Shown here: positions 54,471 to 62,308 of the stretch, one piece after another
How positions within the stretch are numbered: the stretch's first letter is position 1
How the letters are laid out: each line of letters starts with the position of its first letter
Sequence record: KM606994
Direction: 5' to 3' (one strand)
Source of the DNA: Escherichia phage RB3
Length of the DNA stretch: 64,000 nt
The notes under the pieces: model-generated
What the model saw: the letters and a program-made list of their open reading frames with translations, nothing else
What the model was told of the DNA's origin: nothing
The model's database searches: none
Translations under genes and position numbers: made by a program

Positions 54471-54500
54471 ACTATAACACAACACGAGGGACTTGTAAAC
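54471..54500 (-). promoter_or_regulatory. T4-type early promoter (GTTTAC -18 nt- TATAGT)
   Basis: Minus-strand GTTTAC 54500-54495 and TATAGT 54476-54471. Confidence 0.45.
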
Positions 54501-56557
54501 TACATTTTGAACTTTTTAGACATTCCGTTGATGTTAACCAAAGAAGCTAATATTTGAGAAACTTCGTTTTCCTCTTCTTTTGATTCTTCTACAAGGAATT
54601 GATTAAATCCAGCCATTGGACGAACTTCACCAGTTTCCATTAAATGGTCTCCATCATATACTGATTCTTCTAATTGTTCAGAAGGAGGAACGATTGTACC
54701 TTCGATTAGATACTTGTTATAAGCAGTTTCTTTCATAAAGTACGTACTTACTTTATTAATCTTCAGTAAAATTCCGCGCGGTAGAATAACTTCAGCTTCT
54801 GATGGAAATCCTGATAAATGACCTGGAACGATAACTTTGATTCGCTCAGCTCCTTTAATTACCATACCCACGCTAGTTTCAGCATCTTCATTAGCATATG
54901 TAGAATGACTACCCATATGCATCAAATCTTCTGCATCAACGGAACCTTCTCCTTCACCAGAAAATACTGCGCCGGAATCATCTAGAGCCATATAGTTTTT
55001 ACCATGCTCACCGAAGATATTTGGTTTAAGCGATGTGGATACGAAGTTCTTGAAATAGAACATTTTGTTTTCAATGTTATGACGCAAAGTTTTAAAGGTA
55101 ACTTCTTGTCCACGATAAAGCGTAGTTCCTGGAGGAAGAACTGAACCTTTAGCGAATGCAGAATCAAGCGTCTCAATATGTTTAATAGCTCGTTCCATAT
55201 ATTCTTCACGGGTAGAATCTGGTTTACCCAAAAGGAACGAGTTCATTTCAACATATGAATCTGCACAATAATCTTCAATTACATCAGATTCAGCTTGAGT
55301 TAATCCTTTTGGAGTTACTTCGGTGCTTGCGTATTCATATGCCTGGGCAGCAGATTCATTAATCAATTTATAAATGCCATTCATGACAAATTGAATAATA
55401 GCTGTCTTTTCATCTGGCGTAGCTTTAGAACCTTTAACTAAATCATTAATAATTTTCTTAATAACATCAAAGCTATTAGAAATATTAATGTCAGCAAGAT
55501 CGCTTAAAATTTTATCAGTTTTATAATCAAAGAATTCTTTATTCTTTAAATATTCTTGAGAACCTTGATACGATATATCGCTCTGCAACTTGATAGATGG
55601 ATCACGTAAACGTGCATGGGCTAATGCAATATGATTTCGGAAACTTTCTAGTTCATAATCGTTAGATTTAAAACGAGAAGCACTTCTCATACCACCGATA
55701 GCTCCTTTGCCGAAGTTTGAACCAATCTGAATAACGCCAGAGTTCATTGGTCCTTCTGCTTTATATACCGGAACTTTAGATTCAAACTCTTGATATTTCT
55801 TGGCAGCGAAGCTATCACCCTGAAGTGAAGCATCGACAGTAGAATATTGAGCTTGTGCTGCTAATCGACGACTAATTTTAGTTTTTTGAATAACAGCTTG
55901 ATCCGTGCGCTTATCATTTTCTAAAGCAATAGAAGCAGCAACAGCGACAGCTTTAGGAACAGCATTACCTGTTTTAACATCTACATAAACATCACCGACC
56001 TTTGATTCAACTTTTGTGAATAACTCAGTTGAAATAGGAGGTACACCTGGAATGTCTTCTAAATTGGCATTTTTACGGTAAACCATAATATATGCATACT
56101 TTTTATCATAGTCCCAGATTTCCTTTAAAAGAACATATCGACCTGCTCCTTTAGTACGTACTAAACGGTCAGCAATAACTTGCATTTGACGAGCAGCGCC
56201 ATTTGTTTTACTTTTTAGTACGCGGAATAGGCATGCGTCAATTTTATACTGTTTCATTGTTTGAAGAGCAGTATCAAAAACAGCATTAATGACGCCAATT
56301 GGATTTCCACCCAAGTTTCTAAGCTTAACCAGCGATAATTTCTCGTTGACACCTATCATTACGATATGCATCATTTTATCGCCTGGCTTAACGTTTTTAT
56401 TCGTATCACCACCAGAGGTGTATGTACAAAATCTAAATCCAGGAAGCACGCTTTCTTCGCCGGCTTGAATAGCAAAAATTTGTGGTATTTTATGCTTAGG
56501 ATTTAAGTTAACAACCGGCGCCGAAGCGCCGTCAAATAATTCTGTAATAAGTTCCAT
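54500..56557 (-). CDS. Alt-family mono-ADP-ribosyltransferase, second tandem copy
   Basis: 685 aa; first about 230 aa nearly collinear with the upstream Alt (MELITELFD...); ART-type motifs retained (YRGQ, VSTSL, EAEVILPRG); middle and C-terminal regions divergent. Confidence 0.8.
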   Translation of the reverse strand: MELITELFDGASAPVVNLNPKHKIPQIFAIQAGEESVLPGFRFCTYTSGGDTNKNVKPGDKMMHIVMIGVNEKLSLVKLRNLGGNPIGVINAVFDTALQTMKQYKIDACLFRVLKSKTNGAARQMQVIADRLVRTKGAGRYVLLKEIWDYDKKYAYIMVYRKNANLEDIPGVPPISTELFTKVESKVGDVYVDVKTGNAVPKAVAVAASIALENDKRTDQAVIQKTKISRRLAAQAQYSTVDASLQGDSFAAKKYQEFESKVPVYKAEGPMNSGVIQIGSNFGKGAIGGMRSASRFKSNDYELESFRNHIALAHARLRDPSIKLQSDISYQGSQEYLKNKEFFDYKTDKILSDLADINISNSFDVIKKIINDLVKGSKATPDEKTAIIQFVMNGIYKLINESAAQAYEYASTEVTPKGLTQAESDVIEDYCADSYVEMNSFLLGKPDSTREEYMERAIKHIETLDSAFAKGSVLPPGTTLYRGQEVTFKTLRHNIENKMFYFKNFVSTSLKPNIFGEHGKNYMALDDSGAVFSGEGEGSVDAEDLMHMGSHSTYANEDAETSVGMVIKGAERIKVIVPGHLSGFPSEAEVILPRGILLKINKVSTYFMKETAYNKYLIEGTIVPPSEQLEESVYDGDHLMETGEVRPMAGFNQFLVEESKEEENEVSQILASLVNINGMSKKFKM

Positions 56558-56560
56558 GAT

Positions 56561-58657
56561 TTATCCTTGAACGAACTTGTAAGGCATGTTTGTAATATCT
56601 ATGCAAGACGCAATAATTCCAAGAGATGATTCTGCTTTCTGTTTAACGTTTGATGAAACAAATGATGCAAAGTCAACTCTGTCTTCTATTTCAATATCAC
56701 CTGTCATTGCAACTACTTCACCGGTTTCCATTAAATGGTCTCCGTCATAGATTACCGATTCGGTGAGTTCTTCGGTGGTCATAACTTCAGCTTGAATGAG
56801 TTTTGTATTATTAGATGTTGTTCCGTCATTATTAGAAGCATCAGTTATTTTATTAACTTTGACCATCAATCCACGCGGTAGAATAACTTCAGCTTCTGTT
56901 GCTATTCCGAGACTTCCTGGATATACAACATTAACTTTATGAGCTCCATCAATTGCCCATCCTATTTGAACTTTAACGTATTCAGGATTTTCTTTATACG
57001 CTCTTATTTCGTTTGGATTAATAGTTATTCCTTCTTCATTTTTATCAACTGTTAATTCATTGCGAGCTTCTGGTTCTAAAAGACCAATACCAGCATGTGT
57101 AATTCCAAAACGTCCAAAAATGATAGGAGTTAAAGAAGTAGATACAAAATTTCTGAAATAGAACACTTTATTTTTAACTAGTGCTTCGTATATAGGAGCA
57201 GTCATACTTTGAGCACGATAAACTGTAATGCCTTCTGGTATACGGTCACCATTTTCAAAAGCTGAATCTAAATTATTTATCGCAGATTCAATTTCTTTTT
57301 CACTCATTACATCATATCGTTCTGGATTGTAGCGGCCTAAAAGAAGATTATTGATGTCAGTATATCCTGATCCACAATACTCTCTAATACCGCGCTTTTG
57401 CGATGGAGTATATTTAGAACCATCACGGGCAATAGTAATATCAATCATTGGACCTGCACCAATTCCAGAAAAACTATAAATCATTCGTTTGAGGAATTTA
57501 GTTTTTGCTGAGTTCCAAGAATTTTTAGTTATTTCTTCCCAGACTTCATCTGGCTGCCCTTTACGAGTTTTATTATGTTTATCAAGCCAATTATCTTTAT
57601 ATTCTTCAAAGAATTGATTAACAGCTGCTGCGTATTTCTCTAAACATTTTATTGAAGTAGTTGGTTCATTTTTAATCGCATTAAGAATTACATCTTTAAT
57701 TTTTTCAGAAACTTCATTAACCTCACTTTTTGAAAAGAATTTATAGTCATAGTGAAGTTCATCTGCGGTTCCTTCGGCAATGATTTTTGCTGCCTTAGTT
57801 TTAGAAGCTAATGAATTAATTCCAAGCTTCATTTCTTCTGCTTCGGGAATTAAAGGAGCAGTAGCAGGTTTATTGAAATTAGCTGCGGTAGATTCATACT
57901 TCTGGAATAATTCACTTTCAAATCTAGAAGACTCTAACGATTGACTTTGTGCAATTGCTCTACGTGAAATTTTAACTTTAACGATTACAGCTTGGTCAGA
58001 ACGTTTATCATTTTCTTGCGCAATAGATGCTGCAATTGCCTCATTTTTAGTTACTTGGGCTCCAGTATCTTTATTGATATAAACATCACCGACCTTCGAT
58101 TCAACTTTAGTAAAGAGCTCAGTACTAATTTCCGGAACTCCCGGAATGTCTTCTAGTGATACATTTTTGCGATGTATAAGAATATATGCATACTTTTTAT
58201 CGTAATCCCAGAGTTCCTTAAGAAGGACGTATCTGCCACCTGAACGACTGCGGATGAGTCTATCAGCAATAAGTTGAATTTGTCGAGCTTGACCGGCGGT
58301 TTTAGACTTAAGAATACGAAGCATGCAGGCATCAATTTTATACTGACGCATTGTTTGCATTGCAACAGTAAAAACCGAATTGATATAATTAATTGGGCTT
58401 GGACCAAGACCTTTCAATTTAGCAATTGAACCTTTAGCGGTTAATGTAAAAGGAACAATATGCATCATTTTATCGCCCATTTTTAAATCGCGATTAGTAT
58501 CACCTCCAGATGTATAGGTACATAAACGAAAGCCTGGTTGTTCAATTGCATCATCAACATGAACTGAAAAAATTTGCGGTATTTTCTTCTTTGGATTTAA
58601 GTTTGTAATCGGAAGAGTAGTATCTTCGTCAAATAATTCTGTAATAAGTTCCATCAT
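56561..58657 (-). CDS. alt: Alt ADP-ribosyltransferase (head-packaged)
   Basis: 698 aa (697 if second ATG used); ART motifs YRAQ, VSTSL, EAEVILPRG; minus-strand late promoter upstream; T4 position next to ligase gene 30. Confidence 0.85.
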   Translation of the reverse strand: MMELITELFDEDTTLPITNLNPKKKIPQIFSVHVDDAIEQPGFRLCTYTSGGDTNRDLKMGDKMMHIVPFTLTAKGSIAKLKGLGPSPINYINSVFTVAMQTMRQYKIDACMLRILKSKTAGQARQIQLIADRLIRSRSGGRYVLLKELWDYDKKYAYILIHRKNVSLEDIPGVPEISTELFTKVESKVGDVYINKDTGAQVTKNEAIAASIAQENDKRSDQAVIVKVKISRRAIAQSQSLESSRFESELFQKYESTAANFNKPATAPLIPEAEEMKLGINSLASKTKAAKIIAEGTADELHYDYKFFSKSEVNEVSEKIKDVILNAIKNEPTTSIKCLEKYAAAVNQFFEEYKDNWLDKHNKTRKGQPDEVWEEITKNSWNSAKTKFLKRMIYSFSGIGAGPMIDITIARDGSKYTPSQKRGIREYCGSGYTDINNLLLGRYNPERYDVMSEKEIESAINNLDSAFENGDRIPEGITVYRAQSMTAPIYEALVKNKVFYFRNFVSTSLTPIIFGRFGITHAGIGLLEPEARNELTVDKNEEGITINPNEIRAYKENPEYVKVQIGWAIDGAHKVNVVYPGSLGIATEAEVILPRGLMVKVNKITDASNNDGTTSNNTKLIQAEVMTTEELTESVIYDGDHLMETGEVVAMTGDIEIEDRVDFASFVSSNVKQKAESSLGIIASCIDITNMPYKFVQG

Positions 58658-58689: not shown

Positions 58690-58707
58690 TAAAGGCCCGA
58701 AGGCCTT
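58690..58707 (-). terminator. hairpin AAAGGCC-CGAA-GGCCTTT after ORF 58707-58895
   Basis: Perfect hairpin immediately after stop, followed by AATTTT on minus strand. Confidence 0.45.
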
Positions 58708-58895
58708 TAGTAATCTAGTGGTAAGAGAGTACGATATATTTCAAACTTCGGTCCTTTTTCATAGGCATCAAATGTTTCTGTAAATTTGTTATAAGCGTAT
58801 GCATCTACAAATTCGAGAATGACTTGTGATACAGAAGTAGAAACATCTCCACCTTCTTTTTGAGCAATGACAATTGTTTCTAAGTAAGCTTTCAT
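58707..58895 (-). CDS. hypothetical small protein (62 aa)
   Basis: ORF overlapping ligase stop (ATGA). Confidence 0.5.
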   Translation of the reverse strand: MKAYLETIVIAQKEGGDVSTSVSQVILEFVDAYAYNKFTETFDAYEKGPKFEIYRTLLPLDY

Positions 58896-60355
58896 AGACC
58901 AGTTACCTCATGAAAATCACCAAATACATCCTCGAATGTATTAGCTTTAGTTTTATCTTCACGTAAACGAATCGCAATCGGAAGAAATAATTTAACGTAA
59001 TCAGTGCGGCCATCAGATTTTAACCAACCGTTGCATTCGCACTCTAGAATTTTTCCAATATAATAATTTTGGTTTTCCATAATGCGAGTACGGTCAAGTT
59101 CATGCGATTTTACACCGGCTTTATCTTTTAAGCCTGAACCAGCATTTACTTTAATTTTTCCACACTCTGACTCAAGAATAAATCCACCTGCTTTAGTAGG
59201 GTCTTTACGGTGAGGATAAATTCCTACAATTTTTAAATCAACATCAATTACTTCTTTAAATTTATAGAGATTTTTTGAACGAGCATTTTCCCATAATCCA
59301 TCGATATTTTTGAGAATAATACCTTCAAGACCTTGGTCAATATACTTTTTATAAATTACCTTAGCTTCATCTAAGTTATTTACTACTTGGTTTTCAATTA
59401 AAATTACTTTATCATATCCTGATGTCATTTGTTCTAGTTTAGAAAAACGTACATCATATTTCAAACGAAATGCAGGAAGACCGTATATTTCTACCAACGG
59501 TACATAATCCCAGACCTGAAACTTCATGCACTGTGCTTCTTTTTCAGAAATGGTTCCCTTTAAAGATTTATTGGCGATGCCATTAGATGCAGTACGTGAT
59601 TCAGCTACTTCGGCGAATTCTTTAGCTTTACTAATTTCAGGATAAGCATCAAAAAGAAAATCTAGGCCTTCTGGCTCCTTTTTAACTTGCTCATGGTATA
59701 CCAATTCGCCATCAATTAACACACCTTCTGGATGAATCTGGCGGGCTTCAGCGGTCATTTTGATTAACTCTTCCTTAAGAAGATCTAATCCTAGATATTC
59801 ATTACCAGCTCGTGATAAAAGACGAACATCATCTAATTCATCACCTCTAACTTCAGCAAAACACCGAGCTCCATCAGCTTTTAACTGGGCAAAAGCTGGA
59901 AATTTGATATTCTTATTAATGCCTTTTTCATCATAAGAACTTGCAAGCATTTGAGGTTGTTCAGGAATTAAACCTGGCCAAACTTTGTTTGCAATAGATA
60001 CCGAAGCACCGCATTCAAGGTCTCGCATCATCACCCGACGCAAAACTTCAACATCATCTTTTTTACCGTCAGTAATATATCCAGTTAATTCCTCAATTGC
60101 CGCATTTCCAGTCAATTTCCGAGTAGCTAACGTGAATTCAATGAAGTCAAGCATATCGGTAAGAGTCAACATTCCAAAACTCTGGGTAGCAATACCAGGT
60201 TTAGGCCATTTCTTGATATAATACTGTAACCCACGAGAATAAGTCAGACGATATACCCGTTTAAGCAATTCATTATCTTTATTCTTTTCAAGAATTGCTT
60301 GCTTCTGCTTAGTTGAACCAATAGATGCTATTTCGTTCAGAATTTTAAGAATCAT
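58892..60355 (-). CDS. 30: gp30 ATP-dependent DNA ligase
   Basis: 487 aa, T4 length; adenylation motif KADGARC. Confidence 0.95.
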   Translation of the reverse strand: MILKILNEIASIGSTKQKQAILEKNKDNELLKRVYRLTYSRGLQYYIKKWPKPGIATQSFGMLTLTDMLDFIEFTLATRKLTGNAAIEELTGYITDGKKDDVEVLRRVMMRDLECGASVSIANKVWPGLIPEQPQMLASSYDEKGINKNIKFPAFAQLKADGARCFAEVRGDELDDVRLLSRAGNEYLGLDLLKEELIKMTAEARQIHPEGVLIDGELVYHEQVKKEPEGLDFLFDAYPEISKAKEFAEVAESRTASNGIANKSLKGTISEKEAQCMKFQVWDYVPLVEIYGLPAFRLKYDVRFSKLEQMTSGYDKVILIENQVVNNLDEAKVIYKKYIDQGLEGIILKNIDGLWENARSKNLYKFKEVIDVDLKIVGIYPHRKDPTKAGGFILESECGKIKVNAGSGLKDKAGVKSHELDRTRIMENQNYYIGKILECECNGWLKSDGRTDYVKLFLPIAIRLREDKTKANTFEDVFGDFHEVTGL

Positions 60356-60621
60356 TGTTCATCCTTTAGAGTTTGGTTTACAGCTCTATTATAAATCAAT
60401 TCATCATTAAGCTCAGTCAAAGACCTGTGGTACGTGGTTCTAACTTTATTTCCTTGCATCCAGTGCTTGACGTAAATGAAACCTTGCTCTACACATTTTT
60501 TAAAAATTCGTTCGTCTTTTTGAGCTCGGAATTCTGGATTGCATCTAAAAAATTGATTTACGTGACCGTAATCACGTGTAGTATTACCTTCATTTTCATA
60601 AATAGTATGAACAACAAACAT
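60352..60621 (-). CDS. hypothetical protein (30.1-like position)
   Basis: 89-aa ORF, ATG start, overlapping ligase start. Confidence 0.55.
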   Translation of the reverse strand: MFVVHTIYENEGNTTRDYGHVNQFFRCNPEFRAQKDERIFKKCVEQGFIYVKHWMQGNKVRTTYHRSLTELNDELIYNRAVNQTLKDEQ

Positions 60622-61460
60622 TAGAATGCTCCTTGGAAAATATTATCACCACTAGTAGGTCTATTATACAAATACCCTATGCCGCCAGGTTTAATATAGT
60701 TCCATGTCTGAAACGGATGTGTCTGATATGGATGATATAGATGATTATAAGGATTAAACCCAGGAGTTCTCCAGGTAGTGTTCCAAGGAAAAGAATCGTT
60801 TTTGATCATCTTCTCAATTACATCTTTTATAACTTTTTCACTATCAAAACTTTCTTTATTTTCCTTCGATGGAAAAAGCTTATTCTCTACATCATTCCAT
60901 GTATAAACTCGCTGTGCAGTTTTTGGAATACTGTCACGCTCCCCTCGAACCATCCAATAAACAGGAACATTTAATATTTCACTCGCGTGATCGCAATGGT
61001 GAGCGAGATCGTCAATATAACAAATTACGTTATATTTCTCTTTTGCCTTTTTGAACAACTCTTCTTTTGAAGAATCATGACTACACATCAGTACTTCTGA
61101 GAAGGCACCAGGAAAAAGAGCATTCAAATTAAATTGACGATTCAGCAGAGCGTCAATAGAATCACCCAATGCTGTAACAGCTACAAAATTATAATCTTCT
61201 TTTAATTTGTTAATTACACACAGGGCATCTTTATATGGAGACAAGTAACGAATAAAATCTGAACGATTGTATTTTTCAATTAACTTGACGCCAAGTTCTT
61301 CATCACAATTAAAGAGTTTACCAGGAGAAATAAATTTCTCATCTTGGATCATTTTTAAAATATGTTCTAACGGAAGATTATATTTCTGAGCAAAATAAGG
61401 AAGGCCTGATTGCCAGCTTAAACATACTCCATCAATATCAGTTAAAATAGTAGGCTTCAT
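60621..61460 (-). CDS. HAD-superfamily-like hydrolase (30.2-like position)
   Basis: 279 aa; N-terminal ILTDIDGV matches HAD DxDG motif I. Confidence 0.55.
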   Translation of the reverse strand: MKPTILTDIDGVCLSWQSGLPYFAQKYNLPLEHILKMIQDEKFISPGKLFNCDEELGVKLIEKYNRSDFIRYLSPYKDALCVINKLKEDYNFVAVTALGDSIDALLNRQFNLNALFPGAFSEVLMCSHDSSKEELFKKAKEKYNVICYIDDLAHHCDHASEILNVPVYWMVRGERDSIPKTAQRVYTWNDVENKLFPSKENKESFDSEKVIKDVIEKMIKNDSFPWNTTWRTPGFNPYNHLYHPYQTHPFQTWNYIKPGGIGYLYNRPTSGDNIFQGAF

Positions 61461-61915
61461 AGAGAGTCTCTTAATAGGTTTAACACATCAATAAATTCAG
61501 CTTCAGTTAGTATTGTATCATCTTTTGTTAGACCACTAGCCATGCTGTGCTTCAAAACTTTTCCTTTCGAGGCTTGTAATGCATCACGAAAGCCCTTGTT
61601 TTGGATCGCTGCTTCAAAATATGCATTTGTATACAGCTCTTTCCACGCCGGGGAGTATCTTGAAAACGGAACTCCAATCCAGAAGAGGGTCCCACGGTCC
61701 TGAGCTCTAGCATAAGACCTTCCAGCTTGTTGGGCGGCAAGCCCGGATAACCCAAATATACGACGTTGTTGTTCAACATTTTTCACCTTGCATCCTTGGA
61801 GGAATCCTTCAAGACCTCCAAATTGAATACCATCCATAACGAAAGGCCATTGGGCGAAATTACTTAATGCACATGATGGCCACCTAAAATTGTTTCTAAT
61901 CTCTAACTCAGACAT
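61457..61915 (-). CDS. NADAR (YbiA/DUF1768)-like protein (30.3-like position)
   Basis: ORF track TTG start trimmed to ATG 61915 (152 aa); motif LSNFAQWPFVMDGIQFGGLEGFLQGCK matches the NADAR N-terminal signature. Confidence 0.6.
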   Translation of the reverse strand: MSELEIRNNFRWPSCALSNFAQWPFVMDGIQFGGLEGFLQGCKVKNVEQQRRIFGLSGLAAQQAGRSYARAQDRGTLFWIGVPFSRYSPAWKELYTNAYFEAAIQNKGFRDALQASKGKVLKHSMASGLTKDDTILTEAEFIDVLNLLRDSL

Positions 61916-62114
61916 TTTCAATGCTTATAATTTCAACATCAGCCCAATGACCATAGCAAGGAAGACGAAATTCAACTGGCCAGTTAGGGTCCTTTTCTAA
62001 TATAATAGACTTAACTTGTGGTTCTTCATGTTCATCAGTATATGGATTTTTATCTGTTACTTTATATGTGACCTTAATGTACTGAATTCCAAAAATCTTA
62101 TTAATTATATTCAT
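61908..62114 (-). CDS. hypothetical small protein
   Basis: 68-aa ORF, ATG start, in overlapping gene chain. Confidence 0.5.
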   Translation of the reverse strand: MNIINKIFGIQYIKVTYKVTDKNPYTDEHEEPQVKSIILEKDPNWPVEFRLPCYGHWADVEIISIENV

Positions 62115-62308
62115 ACTAGTTCCTTTAATCCGTAAATAGGAGATAATTCATCACCCATACGAAGGTCTTCATTTCCATCTACCCAGGAAACAATATAAGC
62201 CTCTTTTATTTGAACACCACTCCATTTAAATGGAGGTAGAACCTTAGAAATTAATCCAGGTATACCAACTCCCTTTAATTCAACAGTTTGACCTAAAAAG
62301 AATTTCAT
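62111..62308 (-). CDS. hypothetical small protein
   Basis: 65-aa ORF, ATG start, ATGA/TAATG coupling to neighbours. Confidence 0.5.
   Translation of the reverse strand: MKFFLGQTVELKGVGIPGLISKVLPPFKWSGVQIKEAYIVSWVDGNEDLRMGDELSPIYGLKELV

Follow-up and report, generated by a model that had tools for sequence, protein, structure and literature searches.

That phage-encoded NADAR proteins counter DarT is known biology, published in 2024-2025 for gp30.3 (AdfN) of bacteriophage T4. Deletion of T4 gp30.3 sensitizes T4 and T2 to DarTG1, RB69 is rescued by ectopic expression of AdfN, the substitutions E36A and K43A impair function of the T4 protein, and purified T4 AdfN strips ADP-ribose from DarT1-modified DNA (PMC11825919). 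T4 gp30.3 is active on guanine-linked but inactive on thymidine-linked ADP-ribose, and a His-type third catalytic residue has been described for gp30.3 proteins (PMC11125620). AdfN-T4 fails to detoxify DarT1 in uninfected cells or to rescue T5 and Bas25, and an extra T-even protein has been proposed by the authors as a possible requirement for its action (PMC11825919). DarG1, the NADAR antitoxin of DarTG1, reverses guanine ADP-ribosylation by DarT1, a chemistry that gp30.3 would share. DarG1 is a partnered antitoxin, whereas gp30.3 is an orphan that has 30.4 and 30.2 as neighbors, no adjoining toxin gene and no PADLOC match, and AdfN cannot replace DarG1 in uninfected cells (PMC11825919). AdfN works like an antitoxin and is not a member of a toxin-antitoxin pair.

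We examined the corresponding locus in Escherichia phage RB3, using a 64,000-nucleotide window of sequence record KM606994. RB3 is a T4-like Tequatrovirus, and over this region it is 100% identical to RB5, RB6, RB7, RB9, and RB10. The coding-strand order is 30.4, 30.3, 30.2, 30.1, ligase (gene 30), and alt.1. Gene 30.3 (adfN; positions 61457 to 61915, minus strand), which matches PF08010, starts with an ATG at 61915 and encodes a 152-amino-acid protein of the NADAR family, a predicted DNA ADP-ribosylglycohydrolase. A mechanically called ORF of 154 amino acids results from a TTG two codons upstream of this ATG. Directly upstream of adfN lies 30.4 (61908 to 62114, minus strand; 68 amino acids; phrog_2042 and ORF list), and the last codon of 30.4 and the first of adfN run into each other in ATGTCTGA. 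The end of adfN in turn overlaps the start of 30.2 (60621 to 61460, minus strand; 279 amino acids; phrog_420, E = 7e-92), a HAD-superfamily gene, in the stop/start sequence ATGA. Between 30.2 and the ATP-dependent DNA ligase gene (58892 to 60355, minus strand; RB5 and T4 annotation) sits 30.1 (60352 to 60621, minus strand; 89 amino acids; DUF3045, PF11243, E = 2.9e-64), and the ORF coordinates give overlaps of 1 nucleotide for 30.2/30.1 and 4 nucleotides for 30.1/ligase. A promoter scan found 20 candidates against 18.7 expected from shuffling, which is no excess.

The RB3 gp30.3 protein is an orthologue of T4 AdfN. The two are equal in length and identical at 149 of 152 positions (98%), the three substitutions relative to T4 (N8S, I80L, and M125I) are all conservative, and the genes share their neighbors, with 30.4 upstream and 30.2 downstream. 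E36, K43, and H123 are kept, and the C-terminal helix (amino acids 138 to 151) is intact, unlike that of the RB69 frameshift allele. Because the T4 orthologue has already been published, the RB3 locus adds only one more allele.

The preliminary description of this DNA, made from the letters alone, had recognized a NADAR/YbiA signature in the 152-amino-acid ORF, and this assignment was borne out at the levels of motif, profile, and fold. The N-terminal signature of gp30.3, ALSNFAQWPFVMDGIQFGGLEGFLQGCKV, aligned with FSNFAAWPIKVDGKTWPTSEHYFQAQKF of Escherichia coli YbiA in an hhalign profile comparison (Prob 91.7%, E = 7.8e-7), and the two proteins have the motif SNF...DG...E-x-F-x-Q-x-x-K in common. 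Among 48 homologues, down to 34% identity, S18, N19, F20, E36, F38, and Q40 were invariant, and G29 and K43 were nearly so, with K43 present in at least 90%. H123, which lies just after a strand at residues 120 to 122 and opposite YbiA E125, was also invariant in this set. The codons of the three catalytic residues occupy 61810-61808 (E36), 61789-61787 (K43), and 61549-61547 (H123). An AF2 model of the protein (pLDDT 93, pTM 0.89) returned as its top three Foldseek matches in the PDB YbiA (2b3w; E = 3.9e-4), PnNADAR (8bau), and GlNADAR (8bat), with TM scores of 0.65, 0.57, and 0.55, respectively, and beyond these three NADAR structures the search gave no other meaningful PDB match. The protein therefore has a NADAR-superfamily fold with its catalytic residues kept. 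It differs from the three structural relatives in being shorter and without extra domains, in being only 12 to 18% identical to them, and in carrying His at the third catalytic position, where they carry Glu or Asp.

A match to PF08719, the canonical NADAR model, had been put forward as the check on this assignment, and here the expectation failed: gp30.3 gave no PF08719 match at E ≤ 1. Instead, it matched PF08010 (Phage_30_3) at E = 4.5e-70. The PF08719 family includes YbiA, PnNADAR, and GlNADAR, and the miss arises because Pfam places the phage branch in a separate family, PF08010. One remote gp30.3 homologue (P0184) is annotated with both models. Since phage NADARs fall in PF08010 and not in PF08719, a test against PF08719 would wrongly refute a true call. 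Direct sequence searches against PDB chains returned nothing significant for either gp30.3 or gp30.2, and neither protein matched an NCBIfam or PADLOC model.

From orthology, at 98% identity to the T4 protein, we infer that gp30.3 of RB3 hydrolyzes guanine-linked ADP-ribose on DNA. On this model, host DarT1 would ADP-ribosylate replicating phage DNA, and AdfN would hydrolyze the bond between ADP-ribose and guanine, so that the adduct would be gone and replication could go on. E36 and K43 would contact the ADP-ribose, and H123 sits at the family-specific third catalytic position, which is Glu in YbiA and Asp in DarT-linked NADARs. Because it would remove the DarT1 adduct, AdfN would therefore act as an "orphan antitoxin." Given that the best structural and profile match of gp30.3 is E. 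coli YbiA, annotated as "N-glycosidase YbiA," one could propose that the phage protein is a YbiA-type N-glycosidase that acts on small metabolites (such as riboflavin-pathway intermediates) and not on ADP-ribosylated DNA. We regard this as extremely improbable, as the 98%-identical T4 protein de-ADP-ribosylates DNA according to both biochemical and genetic evidence, and the third catalytic residue is the His of phage NADARs and not the Glu of YbiA.

Part of the genetic case for AdfN comes from HIDEN-SEQ, published fitness data for transposon insertions in T4 on DarTG1 and control hosts. Insertions in 30.3 were lost on DarTG1 (log2FC -7.25, q = 0), with mean reads falling from 261 to 0.7. Together with the removal of DarT1-derived ADP-ribose by the T4 orthologue (PMC11825919, PMC11125620), this requirement on DarTG1 hosts upholds the earlier proposal that the NADAR gene can counter DarT-type toxins. 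Insertions in 30.4 were mildly depleted in the same T4 data (log2FC -1.79, q = 0.014), for which polarity on adfN is the simplest explanation.

The same data bear on how far the anti-DarT function extends along the locus. Two Alt-like ADP-ribosyltransferase genes had been reported close to adfN, and both are present and full length: alt (56561-58657, minus strand; RB5 annotation) and alt.-2 (54500-56557, minus strand; RB5 annotation), each matching PF03496 (E = 1.9e-37 and 6e-20 for the two genes). The preliminary description had gone on to join the NADAR gene, the HAD gene, and the two alt genes into a single functional ADP-ribosylation cluster, in which the HAD enzyme would, for instance, act on products derived from ADP-ribose, or AdfN would offset the activity of Alt. 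The arrangement does invite such a proposal: all of the genes share a strand and fit into about 7.5 kb, 30.3 and 30.2 overlap at their stop and start codons, and these two genes occur in a nearly identical set of about 1,450 to 1,500 phage records. However, this co-occurrence at the genome level arises because nearly all T4-like phages have both genes, and it does not hold at the level of the locus. Around NADAR genes, 30.2 was found within 8 kb in 18 of 79 loci and alt in 14 of 79, and many T4-like genomes hold the NADAR gene about 60 kb from ligase and 30.2 (one example being a single contig that was sampled twice, as L020 and L121). A terminator-like GC-rich hairpin followed by a T-run (58690 to 58709, minus strand), a pattern match from a consensus scan, lies at the end of alt.1, between alt.1 and alt, and so sets the 30.x and ligase genes apart from the alt genes. 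According to the T4 record, Alt is packaged in the capsid and enters the host with the DNA. On DarTG1, T4 insertions in 30.2 (log2FC -0.12), alt (-0.01), alt.-1, and alt.-2 were all neutral in HIDEN-SEQ, and the other T4 anti-DarT genes, adfA (61.2) and adfM (tk.4), sit elsewhere in the genome. Synteny and published fitness data thus correct the cluster idea, which we now consider very unlikely. The alt genes are an independent unit, and their adjacency to the 30.x genes is inherited synteny; we found no evidence for a functional link of alt to 30.2 or 30.3, and such a link is not supported. Taken together, it is highly probable that 30.3 is adfN, an anti-DarT NADAR gene, that 30.2 encodes an NT5C-like HAD protein outside that mechanism, and that alt is independent of both.

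The neutrality of 30.2 also speaks to the additional T-even protein suggested for AdfN (PMC11825919). Because 30.2 directly adjoins adfN, the stop codon of one gene overlapping the start codon of the other, and is essentially restricted to T4-like phages, it could be that helper and could explain why AdfN is fully active only in T-even infection. Yet insertions across the 71 TA sites of 30.2 were unaffected on DarTG1 in T4 relative to the control (p = 0.61; mean reads 271.5 versus 249.8) under conditions in which 30.3 insertions vanish, and most phage NADAR genes are not beside 30.2. A helper role for gp30.2 is accordingly hardly credible, and the HIDEN-SEQ DarTG1 table argues strongly against gp30.2 as the missing T-even cofactor. 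Rather, gp30.2 stands outside the anti-DarT mechanism, and in gene order 30.2 is conserved alongside DNA ligase. A 30.2 homologue adjoins ligase in 74 of 80 loci, from phages of Escherichia, Klebsiella, Acinetobacter, Aeromonas, and Vibrio, and ligase is its most conserved neighbor.

What kind of enzyme gp30.2 is can be addressed from its sequence and predicted structure. The DxDG motif I that had been pointed out in the 279-amino-acid ORF is present as D8-I-D10-G11 (D8/D10 at 61439-61431) and is invariant in the family, and the remaining HAD motifs could be located as well, motif II at T96, motif III at K132, and motif IV at D150-D151. In the phage family alignment, D8, D10, G11, W16, R108, and K132 were invariant, and T96, D150, and D151 were at least 90% conserved. 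Among relatives down to about 23% identity, D8, D10, R108, and K132 remained invariant and W16, T96, N111, and D151 nearly so; W16, R108, and N111 are family-specific invariant residues. Residues 1 to 200 (60861 to 61460, minus strand) comprise the HAD catalytic core and a helical C1 cap at about amino acids 16 to 86. In the AF2 model, with pLDDT above 90 over residues 1 to 190, the core is Rossmann-like and the cap, roughly 70 residues long, is inserted between motifs I and II. With its four motifs and C1 cap, gp30.2 is a real HAD-superfamily enzyme.

Within this superfamily, the closest described relatives of gp30.2 are the 5'(3')-deoxyribonucleotidases of the NT5C family, namely cdN (2jao/2i7d), mdN (1mh9), and the Staphylococcus epidermidis protein 3bwv, which likewise combine a HAD core with a helical C1 cap and have a DxDGV motif I and, 8 positions past the nucleophile, an aromatic residue. 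In cdN, this residue is the Phe of DGVLADFESGL, which aligns with gp30.2 W16; in cdN and mdN, that Phe stacks on the base. The gp30.2 family profile matched 3bwv over its full length (E = 4.5e-6), and 3bwv was both the best full-length profile match and a top structural match. NT5C (PF06941) matched 7 of 47 close and 20 of 58 remote gp30.2 members at sub-threshold scores or better (best E = 4.2e-10), but no Pfam or NCBIfam model, NT5C included, reached its threshold on the RB3 protein itself. The RB3 protein scores below the NT5C gathering cutoff and is 14 to 20% identical to the NT5C enzymes, from which R108, N111, and a disordered tail of about 80 residues also set its family apart. Because the structural neighbors of gp30.2 span many HAD substrate classes at near-equal scores, its assignment as a nucleotidase leans on weak sequence-profile evidence.

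We propose that gp30.2 is a Mg-dependent HAD phosphomonoesterase whose active site is covered by a C1 cap, probably kin to 5'(3')-deoxyribonucleotidase-like enzymes. In its chemistry, D8 would carry the aspartyl-phosphate intermediate and D10 would serve as general acid/base, and its most likely substrate would be a small, nucleotide-like molecule. T5 offers a phage-encoded precedent in Dmp, a deoxynucleoside-5'-monophosphatase that acts on dNMPs, is encoded in the first-step-transfer DNA that is first to enter the host, and has a DxDG(T) motif I like that of gp30.2. Kinship between gp30.2 and Dmp was rejected, as nothing beyond motif I is common to the two (hhalign Prob 1.6%).

Given the constant adjacency of 30.2 to ligase, we also weighed whether gp30.2 might heal DNA ends as a 3'-phosphatase, a PNKP-like HAD domain that readies nicks for sealing by the ligase, whose gene lies two places downstream. 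Weak matches to the HAD_PNKP Pfam model (E = 0.2 for the RB3 protein and E = 0.003 for one remote member) are in keeping with this idea. However, NT5C is ahead of PNKP by many orders of magnitude in the profile comparisons, a polynucleotide kinase/3'-phosphatase, PseT, is already present in the phage (RB5 annotation), and the helical cap stands above the gp30.2 active site in the model. Caps are typical of small-molecule HADs, and polynucleotide phosphatases are not known to carry one. An end-healing role is thus improbable, and we retain the NT5C-like assignment, which gives this protein, near-universal in T4-like phages, a testable annotation as a putative capped HAD phosphatase beside the ligase gene. 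A nucleotidase role gives no account of the lasting position of 30.2 beside ligase.

Homologues of 30.2 are present in about 1,440 sequenced phage genomes and, when clustered at 50% identity, have 1,368 representatives. In the genomes of 185,579 bacterial species there was a single match, whose 178-kb contig is probably phage, and cluster look-ups of remote members led to metagenomic proteins only. Larger fusion proteins showed no extra Pfam domains. By name, gp30.2 was the subject of no paper in our literature search and appeared elsewhere only in gene lists; the search likewise gave nothing relevant to 30.2 on HAD, nucleotidase, or anti-defense functions in T4, and a review of T4 relatives mentions neither 30.2 nor 30.3. 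T4 30.2 showed no phenotype in either LB or M9 medium, nor any on DarTG1 hosts, and a nutrient-dependent role was set aside because the comparison of LB with M9 revealed no effect. One could speculate, although we think it rather doubtful, that gp30.2 belongs to a large NT5C-like capped HAD phosphatase clade, almost phage-only in these data and fixed beside ligase, which may act on a particular nucleotide that is modified or non-canonical, or on an immune signal derived from nucleotides. If so, its role would be visible only on hosts with the matching defense or metabolic state, and the variable disordered tails might serve as lineage-specific docking motifs.

In RB3, this tail comprises residues 201 to 279 (60621 to 60860 with the stop codon, minus strand) and is predicted to be disordered and rich in Pro, Trp, and Tyr (pLDDT 40 to 60). 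It carries a short GI(G/E)YLYNRPT motif, and many of the 102 homologues compared have another tail or none. A docking role, such as clamp binding, might be imagined for the GIEYLxxQPT tail motif but was not adopted: the tails vary strongly, several unrelated motifs occur at the C terminus, and many homologues end without a tail.

Two minor observations concern the adfN reading frames. GenBank records of the RB5 group give a 126-amino-acid product from M27, a start that would delete the SNF motif; it is an annotation problem with no biological difference, and we flag the N-terminally shortened adfN of these records here. Within adfN, a putative out-of-frame gene of 75 amino acids (61552 to 61779, minus strand; ORF list) is the equivalent of T4 30.3' (T4 annotation). 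Of 13 close relatives, 11 keep this frame open for 76 codons, one has it broken, and one has it shortened to 61 codons.

Window positions 60300 to 62150 are 100% identical in RB5, RB6, RB7, RB9 and RB10 and 95 to 99% identical in ∼400 other Tequatrovirus genomes. On the minus strand of the RB5 record, the gene order is 30.9 ... 30.4, 30.3, 30.2, 30.1, 30 (DNA ligase), an unnamed alt.1 homologue, alt, alt.-2, and alt.-3, and the order in the T4 record is the same. The two reading frames that the preliminary description placed side by side are both present in our ORF list, as gene 30.2 (60621 to 61460, minus strand, 279 aa) and gene 30.3 (61457 to 61915, minus strand), whose ORF spans 61457 to 61921 and yields a 152-aa product from the ATG at 61915. 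In the raw sequence, stop and start codons overlap as ATGTCTGA at the 30.4/30.3 junction and as ATGA at the 30.3/30.2 junction. ORF coordinates give further overlaps of 1 nt between 30.2 and 30.1 and of 4 nt between 30.1 and the ligase gene, so that all of these genes are closely packed in a single string.

The 152-aa product had been read as a NADAR protein able to counter DarT toxins, and this reading was borne out both by our structural and profile comparisons and by published work on T4, whose gp30.3 is identical at 149 of 152 residues. The protein matches Pfam PF08010 (Phage_30_3; E value, 4.5e-70); the canonical NADAR model PF08719, against which a search had been proposed, gave no match at an E value of ≤1. 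Forty-eight aligned homologues, the most distant at 34% identity, all share S18, N19, F20, E36, G37, F38, L39, Q40, and H123, and nearly all share K43. The profile built from them matched Escherichia coli YbiA (probability, 91.7%; E value, 7.8e-7), pairing the proposed NADAR signature with YbiA FSNFAAWPIKVDGKTWPTSEHYFQAQKF. The alignment stops one residue short of YbiA E125, so that H123 falls opposite this glutamate; phage NADARs have been described as recognizable by a histidine in the last strand (PMC11125620). AlphaFold modeled the protein with high confidence (pLDDT, 93; pTM, 0.89), and the top three PDB matches of the model are the NADAR entries YbiA 2b3w, 8bau (Phytophthora, with ADP-ribose), and 8bat (Geobacter), below which the matches are noise.

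T4 gene 30.3 has been renamed adfN (PMC11825919). T4 and T2 lacking adfN form no plaques on DarTG1 hosts, RB69, whose own allele is frameshifted, is rescued by ectopic adfN expression, the E36A and K43A mutants are impaired, and purified AdfN removes ADP-ribose from DarT1-modified DNA (PMC11825919). An independent study found gp30.3 to be active on guanine-ADPr and inactive on thymidine-ADPr (PMC11125620). In the published T4 transposon screen, mean reads in 30.3 fell from 261.0 in the control to 0.7 on DarTG1 (log2FC, −7.25; q = 0). The anti-DarT assignment is thus already published, including the exact experiments that had been proposed. Because the window allele is full length and retains the C-terminal helix, its AdfN should be functional.

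At 0.423, the GC content of adfN exceeds the window mean of 0.359, lies in the top 5.5% of equal-sized windows, and is the highest among the twelve genes compared from alt.-2 to 30.8. Its GC3 is 0.34, against ∼0.18 to 0.27 in the immediate neighbors and 0.345 in 30.6. This moderately high GC content fits the published view that adfN was acquired from cellular NADARs (PMC11825919). A 75-aa ORF in another frame inside adfN (61552 to 61779, minus strand), equivalent to T4 30.3', was compared in 13 close relatives: 11 keep the frame open for 76 codons, among them alleles with just 84% AdfN identity, one has it broken, and one has it shortened; local high GC content may be what keeps it open.

Annotations of the gene vary. 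In the RB5 group, GenBank gives 30.3 as a 381-nt, 126-aa CDS starting at M27 (RB5 record KM606995, 125449 to 125829), a start that leaves the NADAR motif without its LSNF residues, and the 126-aa database entries P0106 to P0108 share this start call; in both the T4 record and the experimental papers, the product is 152 aa long. Other database entries (P0109, P0113 to P0118, P0121, P0145, and P0193) are incomplete gp30.3 sequences, or pieces with additional matches to PF06919, PF11097, or PF06019, which model other phage families. So many fragmentary entries, some with foreign Pfam matches, suggest that RB69 is not alone and that certain other T-even relatives also have a naturally disrupted or recombined adfN. 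Gene 30.4 (61908 to 62114) likewise shows a significant loss of insertions on DarTG1 in the published T4 HIDEN-SEQ table (log2FC, −1.79; q = 0.014). Since the 30.4 stop and the adfN start share an 8-nt overlap, the simplest reading is a polar or translational-coupling effect; a direct role of 30.4 may instead be at work.

The broader proposal, that the NADAR gene, the HAD gene, and two Alt ADP-ribosyltransferases make up one ADP-ribosylation cluster, was not supported, and three lines of evidence speak against it. A terminator-like hairpin (58709 to 58690, minus strand), a putative terminator, lies between alt.1 and alt, and the T4 record describes Alt as packaged in the capsid and delivered with the DNA. 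Eighty loci were picked for carrying a 30.2 homologue, namely those of RB5 and T4 and 78 from IMG/VR; 74 of them have the ligase gene adjacent, 58 have an Alt-like gene no more than 8 kb away, and 40 have a gp30.3-type NADAR within that distance. When loci were instead picked by the NADAR gene (n = 79), 30.2 was within 8 kb in only 18, ligase in 19, and alt in 14. In several genomes present in both sets, such as contig 2974666281 (loci L020 and L121), 30.2 and the NADAR gene are ∼60 kb apart. GenBank phage records contain 30.2 in 1,438 cases and 30.3 in 1,509, with almost identical genus distributions; nearly all T4-like phages have both, and their co-occurrence is therefore uninformative. The window itself carries two full-length Alt-type paralogues at 54500 to 58657 (698 and 685 aa, both PF03496), whereas in T4 the second copy survives as the small remnants alt.-1 and alt.-2.

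The published T4 fitness tables answer the cluster question directly. On DarTG1, mean reads were 271.5 and 249.8 (control and test) for 30.2, with 71 TA sites (log2FC, −0.12; P = 0.61), 211.0 and 210.0 for alt (−0.01; P = 0.97), 163.5 and 167.7 for alt.-1 (0.04; P = 0.92), 163.9 and 169.1 for alt.-2 (0.04; P = 0.89), and 209.5 and 165.8 for adfA (61.2) (−0.34; P = 0.58). Insertions in 30.2 were recovered at 72 of 72 TA sites on K-12, where the gene is nonessential, and LB versus M9 gave 329.2 and 306.7 (−0.10; P = 0.61). An "additional T-even protein" has been proposed to explain why AdfN functions fully only during T-even infection (PMC11825919); the neutrality of 30.2 insertions on DarTG1 argues strongly against gp30.2 in this part.

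Calling the 279-aa product a HAD protein was right at the superfamily level. No Pfam or NCBIfam model matched gp30.2 at threshold, and it falls in PHROG 420, labeled "unknown function." All organism-named members of its 102 homologues come from T4-like phages except an Acinetobacter baumannii record on a 169-kb contig. In the 47 homologues aligned, D8, D10, G11, W16, R108, and K132 are invariant and T96, D150, and D151 nearly so, and the conserved residues span all four HAD motifs. The AlphaFold model (pLDDT, >90 over residues 1 to 190; residues 200 to 279 disordered) has a helical insertion at ∼16 to 86, between motifs I and II, corresponding to a C1 cap. Foldseek returned 108 PDB chains at an E value of ≤1e-3, the best 50 of which are all HAD-fold, with mouse and human 5'(3')-deoxyribonucleotidases and the Staphylococcus epidermidis deoxyribonucleotidase-like 3bwv at the top. 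An exhaustive profile search reached 1,368 cluster representatives (E value, ≤1e-3), and D8, D10, R108, and K132 remained invariant in 57 of the more remote members. Pfam NT5C matches 20 of the 58 aligned remote sequences (best E value, 4.2e-10), and the match of the remote-family profile to 3bwv covers the whole protein (4.5e-6), with SSM1/Sdt1-type enzymes, XMP phosphatase, and other nucleotide phosphatases ranking next. The counterpart of W16 in cdN DGVLADFESGL is the Phe, a residue that in cdN and mdN stacks on the base of the nucleotide. No relationship between gp30.2 and the T5 dNMP phosphatase Dmp was detectable.

By its motifs and modeled fold, gp30.2 is predicted to be a HAD phosphomonoesterase of NT5C-like ancestry, with a nucleotide-like small molecule as its probable substrate. 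Its fixed place beside the ligase gene would also suit an end-healing DNA 3'-phosphatase, a role we consider very unlikely given the capped active site of the predicted structure, a profile signal far stronger for NT5C, and the PseT encoded in the same genome. The HAD assignment can now be refined to an NT5C-like, capped protein, ligase-adjoining in most T4-like phages and dispensable in the laboratory.

The gp30.2 tail (residues 201 to 279; 60621 to 60860) is rich in Pro, Trp, and Tyr and extremely variable between lineages, with recurring short C-terminal motifs such as GIEYLxxQPT, LRAYY, and YxLLNKVxANDS; roughly one homologue in two lacks it altogether. Among 185,579 bacterial and archaeal species genomes, the one homologue (47% identity) was on a 178-kb contig of a Flagellimonas marina assembly (NZ_JBHSCL010000010.1; locus L162), which is of T4-like size and therefore probably phage sequence. 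NCBI labels a 216-aa homologue from Acinetobacter phage AB1I1M-1 (P0076) "DNA ligase," a name probably carried over by mistake from the adjoining gene.
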